From positions 1 to 51,830 of the forward strand of contig JAGTQA010000015.1 of NCBI GenBank assembly GCA_018396975.1: a stretch of 51,830 nt of DNA, given 5' to 3'. The position numbers and the translations under genes were made by a program. Under the pieces are notes generated by a model. That model was not told the DNA's origin, did not search any database, and saw nothing but the letters and a program-made list of their open reading frames with translations. This document shows positions 1,805-51,830 of the stretch, one piece after another (the stretch's first letter is position 1; each line of letters opens with the position of its first letter). The stretch comes from Candidatus Bathyarchaeota archaeon (lineage in GTDB: Archaea; Thermoproteota; Bathyarchaeia; Bathyarchaeales; DTEX01).

Positions 1805-2335
1805 ACGCTTAATTTTCACCGCGCCATCTCCCCCTTTAGCCATCTCCAACCCTATGCGCTCAGCTAAGAATTTGAGGAGACCTTCCACCGATATACGCTG
1901 GAGCCCCCTTTCGTGGAATACTTGAACTTCAACCTCACTGTCTCTAAAGAGGAATCTAATGAAGTAGTAGTCGAATCTTAGGGCTCTAGGCCTAGACCCA
2001 CCATTTTTCCCAAGCGCGTAGTATCTGATGATGCAGAAGACATCCAGATTATGGAGGGTGCGTTTCTTAACCTCATCTAGGAGGGATTTTAGGATTTCCC
2101 CATCGATATAATTGAATACTAGGCCGTCGGCAACCCCAAACTCAAATATGACATTTATATTCGACCCAATTAGGGTCTTTAGATAGTCTCCTATGCTGCG
2201 GCCGTTTAATCTGTAGAGGGCATTTAAAATCGACTTTTGAACTTCAATCATCGGCAGGTTAAATTCCAGTATGGCGGCGCCATGATACCTGCTTGGGAAG
2301 TCCCAATAGGTTCCTAAACTGCCTTTGGACTTCAT
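1781..2335 (-). CDS. hypothetical protein
   Basis: 184-aa ORF. It overlaps the upstream UPF0148 gene by 4 nt (operon-like). Its 3' end overlaps the convergent tmk by 24 nt. No motif recognised. Confidence 0.5.
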   Translation of the reverse strand: MKSKGSLGTYWDFPSRYHGAAILEFNLPMIEVQKSILNALYRLNGRSIGDYLKTLIGSNINVIFEFGVADGLVFNYIDGEILKSLLDEVKKRTLHNLDVFCIIRYYALGKNGGSRPRALRFDYYFIRFLFRDSEVEVQVFHERGLQRISVEGLLKFLAERIGLEMAKGGDGAVKIKRLWTGLKP

Positions 2336-45984: not shown

Positions 45985-46908
45985 TTATCTAGAAGCCTCA
46001 ACCAAAGGCGGTATTATCTCTTCATAGCCAACTGACATTATATGGCATCCGGCGGCGGAAGTCGTCTTCTTCAGCTCTTTAATGAAACTAGAGAAGTAAT
46101 TGAGGTTTATCTCATCATACTTCAATCTTCTCAGATTCTTATCAGATATTTCACTAGCCTTAGCTAGAGCATCCATAAGATCTTTGGGCACCTTAACCCC
46201 CGGCACATTCTTATCAAAGTAATCAGCCACACCATAGGATTTTAGTGGAAAAATACCTATTATAACAGGAACATTATATTTACTAGTCTCTTTAAGGAAA
46301 GATTTCGCCTTCTCAATGTCAAATACAACCTGCGTCTGGAAAAAGTCAGCTCCAGCATTAACCTTCTTCTCAAACTTTATTAGCTCTGGCTCGATGGGAT
46401 TAGCATTCGGGTTGGCTCCGGCACCGATAAAGAATTTTGGCGGAGACTCGATGGGCCTCCCATTCATGTCAACGCCCTCATCAACTATGCGTCTTACCAT
46501 TTTAATGAGCTGAACAGAATCTAGGTCAAAGACTGGCTTAGCTTGGGGGGTATCTCCTAAAGTTGTGTGGTCGCCGGTTAACGCGAGGACATTTTTTATT
46601 CCCAAAGCGCCCGCGCCTAGAAGGTCTGAGAAGATCGCTATCCTATTTCTATCTCTACACGTTATCTGATATATTGTTTCCAGCCCCGAGTCTCTCTGAA
46701 TAATATATGAGGCAACCAGACTGCTTATGTATGCAAAGGATTGAGGATTATCCGTCACGTTACAGGCCACAACATAATCCTTAATCTTCTTGGCAGCCTC
46801 AACATAACGTGTTAGATTGGTCGTCTTTTCCGGCTCAAGCTCACCAGTAAAAGTGAATTTCCCAGACTTAAGACTCCTCATCAATTCGCTTATAAATACC
46901 TCCGGCAT
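45985..46908 (-). CDS. metF: methylenetetrahydrofolate reductase-like protein (MetF family)
   Basis: MTHFR TIM-barrel pattern (CNVTDNP, QITCRDRNR, LALTGDH, GAGANP, FFQTQVVFD). Confidence 0.8.
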   Translation of the reverse strand: MPEVFISELMRSLKSGKFTFTGELEPEKTTNLTRYVEAAKKIKDYVVACNVTDNPQSFAYISSLVASYIIQRDSGLETIYQITCRDRNRIAIFSDLLGAGALGIKNVLALTGDHTTLGDTPQAKPVFDLDSVQLIKMVRRIVDEGVDMNGRPIESPPKFFIGAGANPNANPIEPELIKFEKKVNAGADFFQTQVVFDIEKAKSFLKETSKYNVPVIIGIFPLKSYGVADYFDKNVPGVKVPKDLMDALAKASEISDKNLRRLKYDEINLNYFSSFIKELKKTTSAAGCHIMSVGYEEIIPPLVEASR

Positions 46909-46923
46909 GAAAACCCCTCACTT

Positions 46924-47628
46924 TCAAGTTTTCACCCAGATAACTTCCCTTGGCTGCACATTTAGCCTCGAATTATCTCTCGGTGGCCTATAAGCCCTAT
47001 AAATATCGAGCATACCGAGTTCTTTAAGTCTGTTATAGATTAGAATCCATGCGCAATCACGCTTGTATCCGCCAACTTCGCACTTACCCTCATACATGCC
47101 TCCACATGGCCCATTAAGCATCCCCTTCGGACATCGAACAATAGGGCATATTCCACCAGTCTCATAAAGAATACATTCACCGCATGCCCTACATCTCTCA
47201 TAGAACTCTCCTATATGCTCTATTATTCCAAGGAATTTTGTGTCTAAAGCTGGTATAGAGGGTTTTTTGAGGTGCTCAACTATATCCTGAACGCCAGCGC
47301 CACAAGTCATACAAAGTATTGCATCAGAAGATTCAATAGCATCCTTTAAGTTGCGGGTATCTCTCCTTAAGATTCTTGCATCACAAGGTGTCTCTACAAC
47401 AACTGCGCCAACAACCTCTTTACCAACACTCCTCAATCTCTCAGCCATCCGCTTAACTTGTTCCTCACCACCAGTCTGAACAACAGTTGAGCATTCTCCA
47501 CAACCAATAATGAATATCCTATTAAAGGGTTCAAGCATTCTCAGAATTTCCTCAAAAGACTTTTGCTCCGTTATTATCAAATCAGGCAACCTCCAGTAAC
47601 CTATTATTTGAACATGAACTGCACACAT
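46924..47628 (-). CDS. metV: MetV-like protein (MTHFR C-terminal zinc/FeS domain)
   Basis: CPKGMLNGPCGG signature of the MTHFR_C domain and the Cys-rich region CRACGECILYETGGICP, directly upstream of metF. Confidence 0.75.
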   Translation of the reverse strand: MCAVHVQIIGYWRLPDLIITEQKSFEEILRMLEPFNRIFIIGCGECSTVVQTGGEEQVKRMAERLRSVGKEVVGAVVVETPCDARILRRDTRNLKDAIESSDAILCMTCGAGVQDIVEHLKKPSIPALDTKFLGIIEHIGEFYERCRACGECILYETGGICPIVRCPKGMLNGPCGGMYEGKCEVGGYKRDCAWILIYNRLKELGMLDIYRAYRPPRDNSRLNVQPREVIWVKT

Positions 47629-47965: not shown

Positions 47966-49363
47966 ATGATTGAAGGGCTGGATGTTAGGGATGAGAAAGC
48001 GAGATTATTTCAGAAAGATTTTCCTCCGGAAGAGTTTAAGGAACGCCGGAGAAAAATATTTAATGCAATAGGTCCGGATGCATGCGCTCTTCTTCAGGGT
48101 AAACCTCAGGTTAGGGGTTTCTATCCCTTTAGGCAATCCAATGATTTTTATTATTGTTGTGGTGTGGAGATTCCGCATTCCTACTTACTAATGGATGGAA
48201 GAGATCAATCGGCTAGGCTTTTTATACCGCGTTTTATTAGCGATCGCGGAGGGGAAAACATTTTAACGCTTGAGGATGCGGATCTAATAAGGGAATTTAC
48301 CGGAATAGATGATGTCCTTCCTTTAGAGAGTCTCACAGAATATTTTAAGGATATTCGTGTACTATATGTTCCTCATAAACCATCTGAAGATAGGGCGGAG
48401 TCCCGCCATACAATACTCCATTCTAATAGACTTATTGCCCTAGATTCATGGGATGGGAGCCTACCACGAGAGCAGCATTTTATCAGCCTATTACATGTTC
48501 GTTTTCCATATATCATGATCAGAGACTTATCACCTATACTTGATTCTTTAAGATTGGTTAAGAGCGAGAGGGAGATAAGTCTTCTTCGTAAAGCTGGTAA
48601 GCTTTCAGCCTTAGCTGTTACTGAAGCTATGCGTGTGACGAAACCAGGTATGATGGAGCATCATTTAAGGGCTGTTGCCAACTACATTTTTATAGCACAT
48701 GGGGCATCTGGGGAGGGCTATCACTCAATAGTTGCCTCAGGAAGAAATATTTGGGACCCGCATTACTATCGCGAGGACTGTATAATGAAAGATGGCGATT
48801 TAGTGTTAATGGACGCTGCACCCGACTACCACTATTATACTAGCGATATTGGGAGAATGTGGCCTGTTAATGGAAAGTACTCATTGTGGCAGAGAGAGCT
48901 TTATGGCTTTATCGTAGAATATCATAAAACATTATTGAGCAATATTCGCCCAGGATTAACTGCTGATCAGATACTTAATACAGCATCTGAGATAATGGCT
49001 GATTTTATTAGAGAATATAGGTTTTCAAAGGAGATTTATAGGAGGTCTGCTGAGCGGGCACTTGAGTTTCGTGGGCATCTTTCACATACTGTAGGTATGT
49101 CTGTACATGATGTTGGTGATTACAGGTCTATGCCGCTTAAGCCTGGAATAGTCTTTTCCGTTGATCCACAAATGTGGGTGCCTGAAGAGAGACTTTACAT
49201 CCGTGTTGAGGACACCATAGTGGTGACTGAAAATGGAGTTGAGGTTTTAACTGGTTCAGCACCCTTGGAATTAGATGACGTTGAATCAATAATGCGCGAG
49301 AAAAGTGTTTTCTTTTCAAATCTAGATAGAATTTTAGAGAGTTTGGTGAGTAAAGATGAGTAA
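47966..49363 (+). CDS. Xaa-Pro aminopeptidase (M24B)
   Basis: M24 metal ligands are present in LMDAAPDYHYYTSDIGR, HTVGMSVHD and RVEDTIVV. Start at an internal Met of ORF 47933..49363. Confidence 0.8.
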   Translation: MIEGLDVRDEKARLFQKDFPPEEFKERRRKIFNAIGPDACALLQGKPQVRGFYPFRQSNDFYYCCGVEIPHSYLLMDGRDQSARLFIPRFISDRGGENILTLEDADLIREFTGIDDVLPLESLTEYFKDIRVLYVPHKPSEDRAESRHTILHSNRLIALDSWDGSLPREQHFISLLHVRFPYIMIRDLSPILDSLRLVKSEREISLLRKAGKLSALAVTEAMRVTKPGMMEHHLRAVANYIFIAHGASGEGYHSIVASGRNIWDPHYYREDCIMKDGDLVLMDAAPDYHYYTSDIGRMWPVNGKYSLWQRELYGFIVEYHKTLLSNIRPGLTADQILNTASEIMADFIREYRFSKEIYRRSAERALEFRGHLSHTVGMSVHDVGDYRSMPLKPGIVFSVDPQMWVPEERLYIRVEDTIVVTENGVEVLTGSAPLELDDVESIMREKSVFFSNLDRILESLVSKDE

Positions 49364-50207
49364 AATAGTTAAGGTCGGCGTATTAAAGGCTGGATGCATA
49401 GGATCGCTTCCATTAATAGAATTCCTTTTAGATGAGAGAGCTGATAGGGAAGATATTCAGGTTAAAGTTATCGGTTCAGGAGCTAAAGTTACCACTGAAC
49501 AATGCATAGAGAGCGCTGAACAAATTTTGAAGTATGATGTTGACCTAATAATCTTTATTGGTCCAGCGCAGACAACGCAAGGTCCCTCTGAGGCACGCAG
49601 AATTCTTAGAGTCTCTAATAAACCAGTAATAGTGGTATCAGATAGCCCTGCGAAAAGAATCATTAAGGAACTTGATGAATCTGGTTTTGGGTATATAATT
49701 GTTGAAGCTGATTCAATGATAGGTGCTAGGAGGGAGTTTCTCGATCCGGCTGAAATGGCCCTATACAATTCCGATATAATTAAGGTTTTAGCTGTAACTG
49801 GTGTCTTAAACCTCATTGTTAGTGAGATAGATAGAGTGATTGATGCGATTAAATCCGGCGGCGAGCTTAATCTGCCTAGACTTATAATTGATGGTAAGAG
49901 GGCTGTTGAGGCGGCTGGTTTCTCGAATCCTTATGCTAGGGCTAAGGCTATGGCAGCTTATGAGCTCGCTAAGCAGGTCTCCACATTAACCTTTGAGGCT
50001 TGCTTTAAAGTGCAGGAGCCAGAGACTTATATTCCGCTCGTTGCCGCAGCGCATGAAATTATGAGGACAGCGGCGAAACTTGCTGATGAGGCTAGAGAGA
50101 TTGAGAAGAAGAACGACTCTGTCCTTAGGAGACCGCACTTCAGGGACGGCTCCCGTGGAGAGAAGAGACTTCTAATGGAGAGACCTAGAAGACCTGTTAC
50201 TTCATGA
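49356..50207 (+). CDS. mtd: F420-dependent methylenetetrahydromethanopterin dehydrogenase
   Basis: N-terminus VGVLKAGCIGSLPLIEFLLDERADREDIQVKVIGSGAK matches the Mtd signature (LLDERADRED). Confidence 0.85.
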   Translation: MSKIVKVGVLKAGCIGSLPLIEFLLDERADREDIQVKVIGSGAKVTTEQCIESAEQILKYDVDLIIFIGPAQTTQGPSEARRILRVSNKPVIVVSDSPAKRIIKELDESGFGYIIVEADSMIGARREFLDPAEMALYNSDIIKVLAVTGVLNLIVSEIDRVIDAIKSGGELNLPRLIIDGKRAVEAAGFSNPYARAKAMAAYELAKQVSTLTFEACFKVQEPETYIPLVAAAHEIMRTAAKLADEAREIEKKNDSVLRRPHFRDGSRGEKRLLMERPRRPVTS

Positions 50208-50285
50208 GGGATGGACTTTAAGCCAGATAAACAGATATAAGCGAGATTCGTTCTGAGAAGAATAAAAAGGAATGGTGAGGGACTG

Positions 50286-50561
50286 ATGCCGGCAATAGAG
50301 ATCGGAAGGGTTTGTGTGAAGATTAGGGGCAGAGAGGCTGGAAAACGCTGTGTAATACTTGACATCATAGACAAGAACTTTGTGTTGGTAACCGGGCCAA
50401 AAAATGTTACGGGTGTTAGACGAAGACGCGCAAACATAAGCCACCTAAAGCCGACGGAAGATATCCTCAAGATAAGGAGGGGTGCATCAGATGAAGAAGT
50501 CTATAAGGCCTTAGTTGAGTCAGGAAAGCTTGAGGAGTATAGGCGAGAAGAAAAACTTTAA
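50286..50561 (+). CDS. rpl14e: 50S ribosomal protein L14e
   Basis: IEIGRVCVKIRGREAGKRCVI KOW-like N-terminus; ~91 aa. Confidence 0.85.
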   Translation: MPAIEIGRVCVKIRGREAGKRCVILDIIDKNFVLVTGPKNVTGVRRRRANISHLKPTEDILKIRRGASDEEVYKALVESGKLEEYRREEKL

Positions 50562-50597
50562 GGTATTTAACTATCGATTATTGTTGAGGAGGATGAG

Positions 50598-50826
50598 ATG
50601 CAAGAGATTAAAGCCCCATGGAACATAAAACGGGAGCTACTGACAAAGTCCGAGGACGAAACGGATCCAAAGTATGGATATAAGCCCGAAGAACGTCCAT
50701 ATCCGGACATAATAAGGTTCGGCATAATAAACTTGGATAAGCCTCCAGGCCCCTCGAGCCACGAGGTTACAGCGTGGATTAAGCGCATACTTAGTATTAA
50801 TCATGCTGGTCACGGAGGGACCTTAG
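50598..50826 (+). CDS. cbf5: Cbf5 (H/ACA tRNA/rRNA pseudouridine synthase) exon 1
   Basis: Ends ...HAGHGGTL + G of the Asp codon. The unspliced frame runs into TAA at 50844. Confidence 0.85.
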
Positions 50827-50863
50827 AGCCCATAGCAGTATCTTAAGGGCTATGGGCGTGGAA
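50827..50863 (+). other. bulge-helix-bulge (BHB) intron within the cbf5 coding sequence (37 nt)
   Basis: Helix A GGGA(50817-20)/TCCC(50865-68). Central helix CCTT(50821-24)/GTGG(50858-61). Bulges AGA (50825-27) and AAA (50862-64). Inner 9-bp helix GCCCATAGC/GCTATGGGC. Removal restores GGTL-D-PKVTGILPVALEEA in frame (229+764 nt = 331 codons). Confidence 0.8.
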
Positions 50864-51627
50864 ATCCCAAGGTGACCGGTATCCTACCTGTAGCCCTAGA
50901 GGAGGCAACAAAAGTTATACAGGCGCTGCTAAAGGCTGGTAAAGAGTATGTTGGCGTAATGAAACTCCACGGTGACGTGTCCGAGGAGCGGATTAAGGAG
51001 GTTTTCAGCGAGTTTAAGGGCAAGATTTATCAGAAACCCCCGCTCAGGGCATCTGTCAAGAGGGCTATACGCGTAAGGTCAATCTATTACCTAGATATGT
51101 TAGAGATTGATGGTAGAAATATCCTCTTTAAGGTTGGATGCGAGGCTGGAACATATATTAGGAAGCTTGTTCATGATATAGGTAAAGTTCTAGGCTGCGG
51201 CGCACACATGCATGAGCTCCGCAGAATTAGGGCTGGCCCCTTCATTGAGGACGAAAGCACGGTCACCCTACACGATGTACTATACCTCTACGAGAGGTGG
51301 CGTGAGACTGGCGACATAAGAATGCTTAGAAGGTTCATACTGCCAATGGAGAGGGCCCTTAACCTACTACCAAAGGTCTTTATTAGGGACTCCGCCGTGG
51401 ACGCTATATGCCACGGCGCGCACCTAACGGCCCCGGGCATAACTCATGTTGAGTCTGGAATAAATCCAACAGATACTGTCGCCATACTCACCCTTAAAGG
51501 TGAGGCAGTAGCATTGGGAACAGCTGTAGCCAGCACCGAAGAGATGCTCAAAGCCACGCATGGAATAATGGTTAAGACAGAGAGGGTCCTAATGCCAAGG
51601 GGGACATACCCAAAACTCTGGCGATAA
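50864..51627 (+). CDS. cbf5: Cbf5 exon 2
   Basis: Begins with AT of the Asp codon, then PKVTGILPVALEEATK ... and a PUA domain at the C-terminus. Confidence 0.85.
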
Positions 51628-51689
51628 AAATCAAACAACTTAAATAGCCTAGAAAATTTTATAGAAGATTGAGAGCCGGGGTCTCCTAG

Positions 51690-51714
51690 AGCCCAATAAG
51701 AAAGAGGCGGGAAA
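51690..51714 (+). other. tRNA-Ser intron 1 (D-loop, 25 nt)
   Basis: Central helix TCCT(51684-87)/GGGA(51709-12), bulges AGA(51688-90) and AAT(51713-15), inner helix GCC/GGC. The outer helix is not contiguous (relaxed BHB). Confidence 0.6.
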
Positions 51715-51729
51715 TCCGGTAGGGAGCAG

Positions 51730-51755
51730 ATTACAACAAGCAAACGTAAGCTTAA
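51730..51755 (+). other. tRNA-Ser intron 2 (position 29/30, 26 nt)
   Basis: Canonical hBHBh'. Outer helix AGG(51721-23)/CCT(51757-59), central helix GAGC(51724-27)/GCTT(51750-53), bulges AGA(51728-30) and AAG(51754-56), inner helix TTAC/GTAA. Confidence 0.75.
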
Positions 51756-51763
51756 GCCTGGAG

Positions 51764-51778
51764 ACAGAAAAGCCGAAT
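51764..51778 (+). other. tRNA-Ser intron 3 (canonical 37/38, 15 nt)
   Basis: Bulges AGA(51762-64) and ATA(51777-79). The central helix CTGG/CCGA forms 3 of 4 pairs. The outer helix is the anticodon stem and the inner helix is minimal. Confidence 0.55.
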
Positions 51779-51830
51779 AGCCTGTGGCCCACTCTGGGCC
51801 GCGTGGGTTCAAATCCCACCCCCGGCGCCA

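Follow-up and report, generated by a model that had tools for sequence, protein, structure and literature searches.

A probable bulge-helix-bulge intron in the catalytic aspartate codon of cbf5 in Bathyarchaeia

The window analysed here, a stretch of 51,830 nucleotides (nt) from a Candidatus Bathyarchaeota archaeon (contig JAGTQA010000015.1), carries near its right-hand end the gene cbf5, and the subject of this report is an interruption of that gene which very probably represents an intron. The gene appears as two open reading frames (ORFs), 50598..50846 and 50872..51627, which an earlier note, made from the letters alone, took to be parts of one Cbf5; our analysis agrees, in that they correspond to the two exons of a single gene. 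ORF1 encodes 82 amino acids (aa) and lacks the catalytic Asp, and ORF2 encodes 251 aa from a GTG start which in fact encodes the Val of the conserved KVTG motif. The sequence around the interruption (50817..50868) reads GGGACCTTAGAGCCCATAGCAGTATCTTAAGGGCTATGGGCGTGGAAATCCC, and the motif GGTLDPxVTG is broken after GGTL. Deletion of 37 nt (50827..50863) restores GGTLDPKVTG in frame and gives a coding sequence of 993 nt, i.e., 330 aa plus a stop codon, which is the total of 331 codons counted previously. The interruption falls between the first and second bases of the Asp codon (TTA G | AT CCC), although the junction can be slid by one base, since 50827 and 50864 are both A, with an identical product either way.

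The predicted spliced protein has the domains DKCLD, TruB_N, TruB_C_2 and PUA, and aligns from end to end with the solved structure of Cbf5 from Pyrococcus abyssi (2aus; E = 3e-130), with no gap over the junction. Asp77, the residue whose codon is rebuilt, aligns with the Asp of GGTLD in the 2aus chain, which is the catalytic residue according to Yokobori 2009 (PMC2738675). The rebuilt codon is thus that of the catalytic Asp, as had been claimed, and because neither ORF encodes Asp77, an unspliced mRNA would give only an 82-aa fragment that lacks it. The gene is intact solely once the 37 nt are removed. Relative to the related gene L001, the spliced coding sequence has 111 synonymous and 30 nonsynonymous codon differences, and by this comparison both exons are under purifying selection. 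Since cbf5 is also present as a single copy within the window, the gene is functional and not a pseudogene.

The two ORFs might instead be a truly split gene, comparable to those of Nanoarchaeum, with separate 82-aa and 251-aa products that combine to form an active enzyme. Gene callers do give two ORFs, both in the window and in its relatives, and ORF2 has a possible GTG start. We consider this very improbable, however, because the interruption destroys the catalytic Asp codon, and neither fragment carries the residue (ORF2 starts at the V of KVTG). In addition, the start codon of exon 1 follows a Shine-Dalgarno-like element, and the GTG at 50872 has no comparable ribosome-binding site in front of it. 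Relatives differ freely in gap length and in the downstream frame, and the constraint on synonymous sites and the covariation described below indicate an RNA structure rather than two translation units.

The junction region folds into a near-canonical bulge-helix-bulge motif with flanking outer and inner helices (hBHBh'), and every helix and bulge named in the earlier note is present (Table 1). The features expected of a general substrate of the tRNA-splicing endonuclease EndA were all found, namely two opposite 3-nt bulges, a 4-base-pair (bp) helix between them, and flanking helices. The junction that restores the reading frame lies exactly after the second base of each bulge, which is where cleavage had been placed. 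With one U·U mismatch in the 4-bp central helix, the predicted motif is a mildly relaxed version of this structure. A further element, which the earlier note overlooked, is a 9-bp helix between the two exons, formed by the Ala-Gly-His codons and the Val-Thr-Gly codons. The 81-nt region as a whole has a folding energy of -39.1 kcal/mol (z = -4.4), and none of 200 shuffled sequences was as stable.

Table 1. Positions in the window of the cbf5 exons, the predicted intron with its RNA structure, and the adjoining tRNA gene.
Feature	Position	Strand	Details
Shine-Dalgarno-like GGAGG	50588..50592	+	5 nt upstream of cbf5 start codon; read from sequence
cbf5 exon 1	50598..50826	+	76 codons + G of Asp77 codon; DKCLD and start of TruB_N; ends ...AGHGGTL-(G)
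Exon-exon helix, 5' strand, 9 bp	50805..50813	+	Ala-Gly-His codons GCUGGUCAC; pairs with 50872-50880; minimum-free-energy fold
Outer helix h, 5' strand GGGA	50817..50820	+	Gly codon GGG + first base of Thr; pairs with 50865-50868
Central helix H, 5' strand CCUU	50821..50824	+	pairs with 50858-50861; U·U mismatch 50823·50859
5' bulge AGA	50825..50827	+	predicted cut after second base (50826|50827)
Bulge-helix-bulge intron (predicted), 37 nt	50827..50863	+	AGCCCAUAGCAGUAUCUUAAGGGCUAUGGGCGUGGAA; predicted cuts 50826|50827 and 50863|50864
Inner hairpin h'	50828..50857	+	9-bp stem (50828-36 / 50849-57), 12-nt loop
Central helix H, 3' strand GUGG	50858..50861	+	inside intron
3' bulge AAA	50862..50864	+	predicted cut after second base (50863|50864)
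cbf5 exon 2	50864..51627	+	AU of Asp codon, PKVTG... to stop; rest of TruB_N, TruB_C_2, PUA
Outer helix h, 3' strand UCCC	50865..50868	+	third base of Asp + Pro codon
Exon-exon helix, 3' strand, 9 bp	50872..50880	+	Val-Thr-Gly codons GUGACCGGU
tRNA-Ser(GGA), encoded CCA, three introns	51675..51830	+	ARAGORN on intron-removed sequence
tRNA-Ser intron 1	51690-51714	+	25 nt, D-loop
tRNA-Ser intron 2	51730-51755	+	26 nt, within 5' strand of anticodon stem; perfect hBHBh' motif
tRNA-Ser intron 3	51764-51778	+	15 nt, canonical 37/38

The genomes nearest to the window are all labelled Candidatus Bathyarchaeota or Bathyarchaeia, and many of them are metagenome-assembled genomes from hot springs; the best of these matches exon 2 with 90% identity. 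The neighbouring genes (methylene-H4MPT dehydrogenase, MTHFR and L14e) are consistent with such a host, and judging by these matches the window is from a hot-spring lineage of Bathyarchaeia. The closest database proteins are 251-aa gene calls of 85-99% identity that contain exon 2 only, so cbf5 is split in the relatives too. For 84 fetched loci we measured how far the Leu codon of GGTL lies from the Pro codon of PxVTG. Of 55 Bathyarchaeia species genomes (Hecatellales included), 48 have an insert of 17-45 nt at the same site as the window and seven have none; the sample of 55 is skewed towards relatives of the query, and the fraction is not an estimate of prevalence. The distance was the uninterrupted 3 nt in all 25 loci from Asgard archaea, Thermoplasmatota, Methanobacteriota, Micrarchaeota and Thermofilaceae. 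Two 339-aa proteins (P0033 and P0090) were suspected of carrying read-through introns, and turned out to be intron-less, with the sequence AGQGGTLDP.

These counts bear on the possibility of a lesion in a pseudogene or an artefact of assembly. The sequence does derive from a metagenome assembly, and defects are seen in related loci, with a scaffold gap in cbf5 of L085 and a 5-nt duplication that causes a frameshift in L088. Yet 48 species genomes, each assembled independently, and further metagenome contigs have an insert at the same site, and such recurrence rules out an assembly artefact. The inserts also vary in sequence yet keep their structure, and the purifying selection on both exons and the single cbf5 copy in the window speak against a lesion, so that we regard either explanation as improbable in the extreme.

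The structure of the insert is kept across relatives. Splice sites in the relatives were set by the reading frame alone, and every insert fits one layout, which consists of the outer helix, the central helix, a 3-nt bulge, the inner hairpin, the second strand of the central helix, a 3-nt bulge, and the second strand of the outer helix. This layout was found in 48 further distinct sequences from other genomes, which differ in sequence. The central helix takes the forms CCUU/AAGG, CCCU/GGGG and CUCU/AGAG, with compensatory change at two of the four pairs, and the 16 sequences of the window's subclade all keep a pyrimidine·U mismatch at its third pair. The 5' bulge is mostly AG|A, and in some relatives UG|A.

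We evaluated covariation in an alignment anchored on the splice sites, with 49 distinct sequences (the window included) and 500 shuffles as the reference. Paired cells amounted to 92.8% (88.2% in the shuffles) and the covariation score was 0.248 (0.166 in the shuffles), and for neither measure did any of the 500 shuffles reach as high a value. Pairing falls to 28-48% when the 3' partners are slid by 1-3 columns. Both partners have changed in six pairs, among them the three closing pairs of the inner helix, where the compensatory changes are of the types GC/AU/UA and GC/CG/AU. The 9-bp exon-exon helix is paired in 93% of its cells, and RNAalifold recovered the same nested topology.

Intron lengths in the same 49 sequences are spread almost evenly over the three classes modulo 3 (16, 15 and 18 sequences), which argues that the insert is not translated. 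It follows that the lengths fit poorly with the idea that ribosomes cross the gap during translation, by a programmed frameshift or by bypassing. What recommends that idea is the stable hairpin and the stop codon (50844-46) within the gap, an arrangement somewhat reminiscent of the bypass element in phage T4 gene 60. The Asp codon, however, needs a G from one side of the gap and an AU from the other, which is impossible for a frameshift or a hop. A +1 shift within the insert would produce ...GRGNPKVTG, in which Asn replaces Asp and the active site gains about 12 residues. We find this alternative hardly credible.

Because the two exon helices encode invariant residues, they have no freedom to covary, and the model instead predicts the use of particular synonymous codons. 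The prediction agrees with the codons found in 48 intron-bearing and 30 intron-less genes, with the limit that the two sets differ in phylogeny, so that the contrast is no clean test. The Gly codon of the outer helix is GGG in 40/48 intron-bearing vs 5/30 intron-less genes, and the Asp codon is GAT in 42/48 vs 13/30. For the codons of the 9-bp helix, the Gly of AGH is GGT in 41/48 vs 6/30, and Val is GTG in 41/48 vs 5/30. All nine pairs of this helix can form in 27 of the intron-bearing genes and in none of the intron-less ones; at least eight pairs form in 40 of the former and in one of the latter, for which eight is the maximum. The codon pattern is likewise missing from the seven intron-less Bathyarchaeia. 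These comparisons indicate that synonymous choices keep the two exon-exon helices, and that they do so in intron-bearing genes only. With codon choice differing at Gly, Asp, Pro, Val and Thr between genes with and without the intron, the Bathyarchaeia set is a clean natural experiment in which a coding sequence is visibly shaped by a requirement for RNA structure.

We conclude that the cbf5 pre-mRNA of these Bathyarchaeia very probably contains an intron of the bulge-helix-bulge type that is cut by EndA and ligated by RtcB. In this scheme, exon and intron sequences of the pre-mRNA would fold into the near-canonical hBHBh' motif, held together by the two exon-exon helices (9 bp and 4 bp) and the 9-bp intronic hairpin. 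EndA would then cut after the second base of each 3-nt bulge, and an RtcB-type ligase would join the exons, restoring the GAU codon of Asp77 and the 330-aa Cbf5. The splicing of HAC1/XBP1 by Ire1 and a tRNA ligase or RtcB is comparable, in that a short coding intron defined by structure is removed by a protein endonuclease, the ends are joined by a tRNA ligase, and the protein is changed; it differs in its endonuclease and recognition motif, and in being regulated by stress.

The roles of EndA and RtcB are inferred from the match of site and motif to the crenarchaeal cbf5 intron, for which there are cDNA and in vitro cleavage data; in Bathyarchaeia the evidence for splicing comes from sequence. 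Several observations weigh against the proposed splicing. At 37 C, the strict bulge-helix-bulge conformer is less stable than the minimum-free-energy fold, though only by 3.2 kcal/mol, and the central helix contains the U·U mismatch, whose bases pair slightly differently in the minimum-free-energy fold. A Pfam scan of 20 ORFs of the window found no EndA or RtcB gene. When the spliced translations of intron-bearing loci were compared with the best 120 database proteins, there was no full-length match of at least 90% identity; the six proteins that reach this level are exon-2-only gene calls. Metagenome contigs were also scanned for a spliced junction using the codon signature of the clade, and the eight matches were all genomic intron-less genes, four of them bacterial TruB.

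The earlier note saw in these introns a sign that the endonuclease of this lineage has an expanded substrate range. There is no need for that supposition, given that TACK archaea in general are reported to have the broad-specificity (alpha-beta)2 endonuclease (PMC5829648). Cleavage of an mRNA at a bulge-helix-bulge by the tRNA-splicing endonuclease, as we propose here, also has a counterpart in Haloferax volcanii HVO_1309 (Schwarz 2020, PMC7714728). That intron differs in that it is located in the 5' untranslated region, interrupts no codon, and belongs to a euryarchaeon with a homodimeric endonuclease (PMC7714728).

Cbf5 was described in the earlier note as the classic crenarchaeal case of such an intron, and the comparison of positions bears this out. 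Yokobori 2009 (PMC2738675) found the intron in Desulfurococcales and Sulfolobales only, where it likewise separates bases 1 and 2 of the catalytic Asp codon. It is 38 nt long in Aeropyrum pernix, 22 nt in Sulfolobus solfataricus and 31 nt in S. tokodaii (Watanabe 2002; Yoshinari 2006; Yokobori 2009, PMC2738675), and the published introns span 16-44 bp, with cleavage between the second and third bulge residues (PMC2738675). The window's intron agrees in host gene, insertion point, length class (37 nt), the lack of an ORF within it, the bulge-helix-bulge motif, the predicted cleavage after the second bulge base, and the patchy presence and absence within its group. It differs in its host, which is of the class Bathyarchaeia rather than Thermoprotei; the host lies outside the crenarchaeal orders known for this intron, which is the interesting part of the observation. 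This mismatch marks a limit of the known taxonomic range and has no bearing on mechanism. The Bathyarchaeia motif also has a full outer helix and the extra 9-bp exon-exon helix kept by codon choice, whereas published crenarchaeal cbf5 motifs are described as relaxed.

Reviews from 2020 and 2023 restrict the cbf5 intron to a small group of related Crenarchaeota, and our literature search found no report of one in Bathyarchaeia, although a report beyond the searched literature is possible. As far as its sequence features go, then, the intron is of a known kind and previously undescribed in its host class, in which it is present in many lineages and has a more complete motif that exon-exon pairing stabilises. 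A profile search with the published A. pernix and Sulfolobus fragments returned short partial proteins only, and the crenarchaeal comparison was made with three metagenome genomes (L085-L087), which are not type strains. These are labelled Zestosphaera, Desulfurococcales and Thermoprotei, and have inserts of 36, 33 and 67 nt, respectively, at the Asp site. Their boundaries, AG|A GCCC...GGGC GGGG AA|A, are almost identical to those of the window, but their outer helices pair weakly, and of the nine pairs of the long exon helix just 4-6 are formed. The 67-nt intron (L087; QMWQ01000047.1, 1952..2021; taken as Thermoprotei) exceeds the published range of lengths. A second break of cbf5 in L085 was considered as a further intron, and is a run of N that represents a scaffold gap.

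Within Bathyarchaeia, a neighbour-joining tree of exon 2 places intron-bearing genes across most of the sampled diversity, with the intron-less genes forming one nested clade plus L032; being a rough tree of a single gene, it is weak evidence. The pattern looks like early presence of the intron in Bathyarchaeia followed by loss in some lineages. Many more distant, full-length Bathyarchaeia-like Cbf5 proteins are uninterrupted. Three metagenome contigs related to L032 (L090, L093 and L096) have an intron-less Bathyarchaeia cbf5 that keeps the codon signature of the intron type (GGT CAC GGC GGG ACY CTA GAT CCC AAA GTG ACT GG). Among the scored loci, the closest to them is L032, itself intron-less, followed by L033 with an intron of 17 nt, and the pattern would fit a fairly recent and precise loss of the intron.

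The finding in Bathyarchaeia reopens the question of when the cbf5 intron arose. One answer is an independent origin, in which the Bathyarchaeia intron is a separate insertion at the same site and was not inherited from a common ancestor with the crenarchaeal one. In its favour, Thermoproteales, Thaumarchaeota and Korarchaeota are scored as intron-less (Yokobori 2009, PMC2738675), as are the Thermofilaceae loci examined here, and the distant Bathyarchaeia-like proteins noted above are uninterrupted. The likeness of the boundaries is partly forced, since the central helix needs a 3' strand that pairs with the conserved exon, and the long exon-exon helix of Bathyarchaeia is not kept in the three crenarchaeal-type loci. 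Against it, the two introns occupy exactly the same base position, they resemble each other in their bulge bases and in the GC-rich beginning of the inner helix, and both groups have the same pattern of patchy loss (PMC2738675). We put the chance of a separate insertion not far below even.

The intron may alternatively predate the split of Thermoprotei and Bathyarchaeia, having been kept at one exact site and lost many times; we offer this reading tentatively, as possible but rather doubtful. In a variant of it, CCUAG|AUCC would be a recurrent landing place for mobile introns of the tRNA type, an idea prompted by the D-loop intron of the adjacent tRNA-Ser gene, whose core is nearly identical. 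If the ancient reading is true, the intron was not a local invention of the Desulfurococcales-Sulfolobales ancestor, and a protein-gene intron has been kept through most of the history of Thermoproteota. The published account has a single gain in that ancestor, and it is changed by the presence of the intron at the same base in many Bathyarchaeia; genome data can now be used to test how old and how mobile archaeal protein-gene introns are. There is also a practical consequence, which is that gene callers split cbf5 into 82-aa and 251-aa proteins, so that a conserved housekeeping gene is mis-annotated in many metagenome-assembled genomes.

The tRNA-Ser(GGA) gene begins 48 nt downstream of the cbf5 stop codon. 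The earlier note had called it a triple-intron tRNA, and ARAGORN does call a 90-nt tRNA-Ser(gga) once three segments are removed; the precursor with its introns is missed by both ARAGORN and Rfam. A search of 50500..51830 against Rfam gave nothing relevant, just the T-arm of the tRNA. Given that introns occur here at non-canonical positions, the host endonuclease must be able to handle such positions, and the D-loop and anticodon-stem introns are in this sense indirect support for splicing of cbf5. Non-canonical archaeal tRNA introns, which are processed by (alpha-beta)2 or epsilon2 EndA, resemble the cbf5 intron in recognition motif and predicted enzymes. They differ in that the cbf5 substrate is an mRNA whose splicing decides whether the protein is made, and in that the surrounding structure is coding sequence rather than a tRNA body.

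The core of the D-loop intron is nearly that of the cbf5 intron (YCCU AGA GCC...GGC GGGG AA). The two (51687..51717 and 50824..50868) share their ends, with TAG|AGCCCA on the 5' side and GGAAATCC on the 3' side. TAGAGCCCA occurs at only two sites in the window, and the combined pattern, which was chosen post hoc, has two matches against zero expected. Recent transposition between the two introns was considered on the strength of the shared TAGAGCCCA and GGAAATCC and rejected, as the two do not co-vary across genomes; AGCC...GGCGGGRAA is maintained in the tRNA intron, whereas the cbf5 intron changes in its inner helix. Most of the likeness arises because pairing with similar exon sequence forces it, and shared constraints or a very old relationship appear more likely than a recent transposition.

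The order cbf5-tRNA-Ser(GGA) is kept in many Bathyarchaeia (L001-L035 and others), with the tRNA approximately 50-100 nt downstream. The number of tRNA-Ser introns varies from 0 to 3 by lineage; for example, L009, L032 and L033 are without the D-loop intron, and L021 and L023 without the one at 37/38. These loci constitute a ready-made data set on the gain and loss of tRNA introns.

A candidate second intron site in cbf5 was seen in L088 (JGI 3300041075, Ga0452204_043989), which has no intron at the Asp codon. Here a 42-nt insert with an in-frame TGA (approximately 1931..1972) separates the D and K codons of INLD|KPPGP. It has a central helix with 4/4 pairs (CUGG/CCAG) and an inner helix GCUUG/CAAGC, with AUA and AAA as the bulges, and its removal joins GAU|AAA in frame, so that it may be a bulge-helix-bulge intron at a second position in the gene. 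The frameshifting duplication in this locus is a 5-nt tandem repeat near 2366 (AACTA AACTA), and assembly quality is uncertain.

Upstream of cbf5 in the window, the regions 49356..50561 and 45985..47628 contain the genes for methylene-H4MPT dehydrogenase (MTD), MTHFR and its C-terminal-domain partner, and ribosomal protein L14e. The L14e gene, which encodes a KOW domain, is directly upstream of cbf5, and the L14e-cbf5 pairing is present also in the crenarchaeal-type loci L085-L087.

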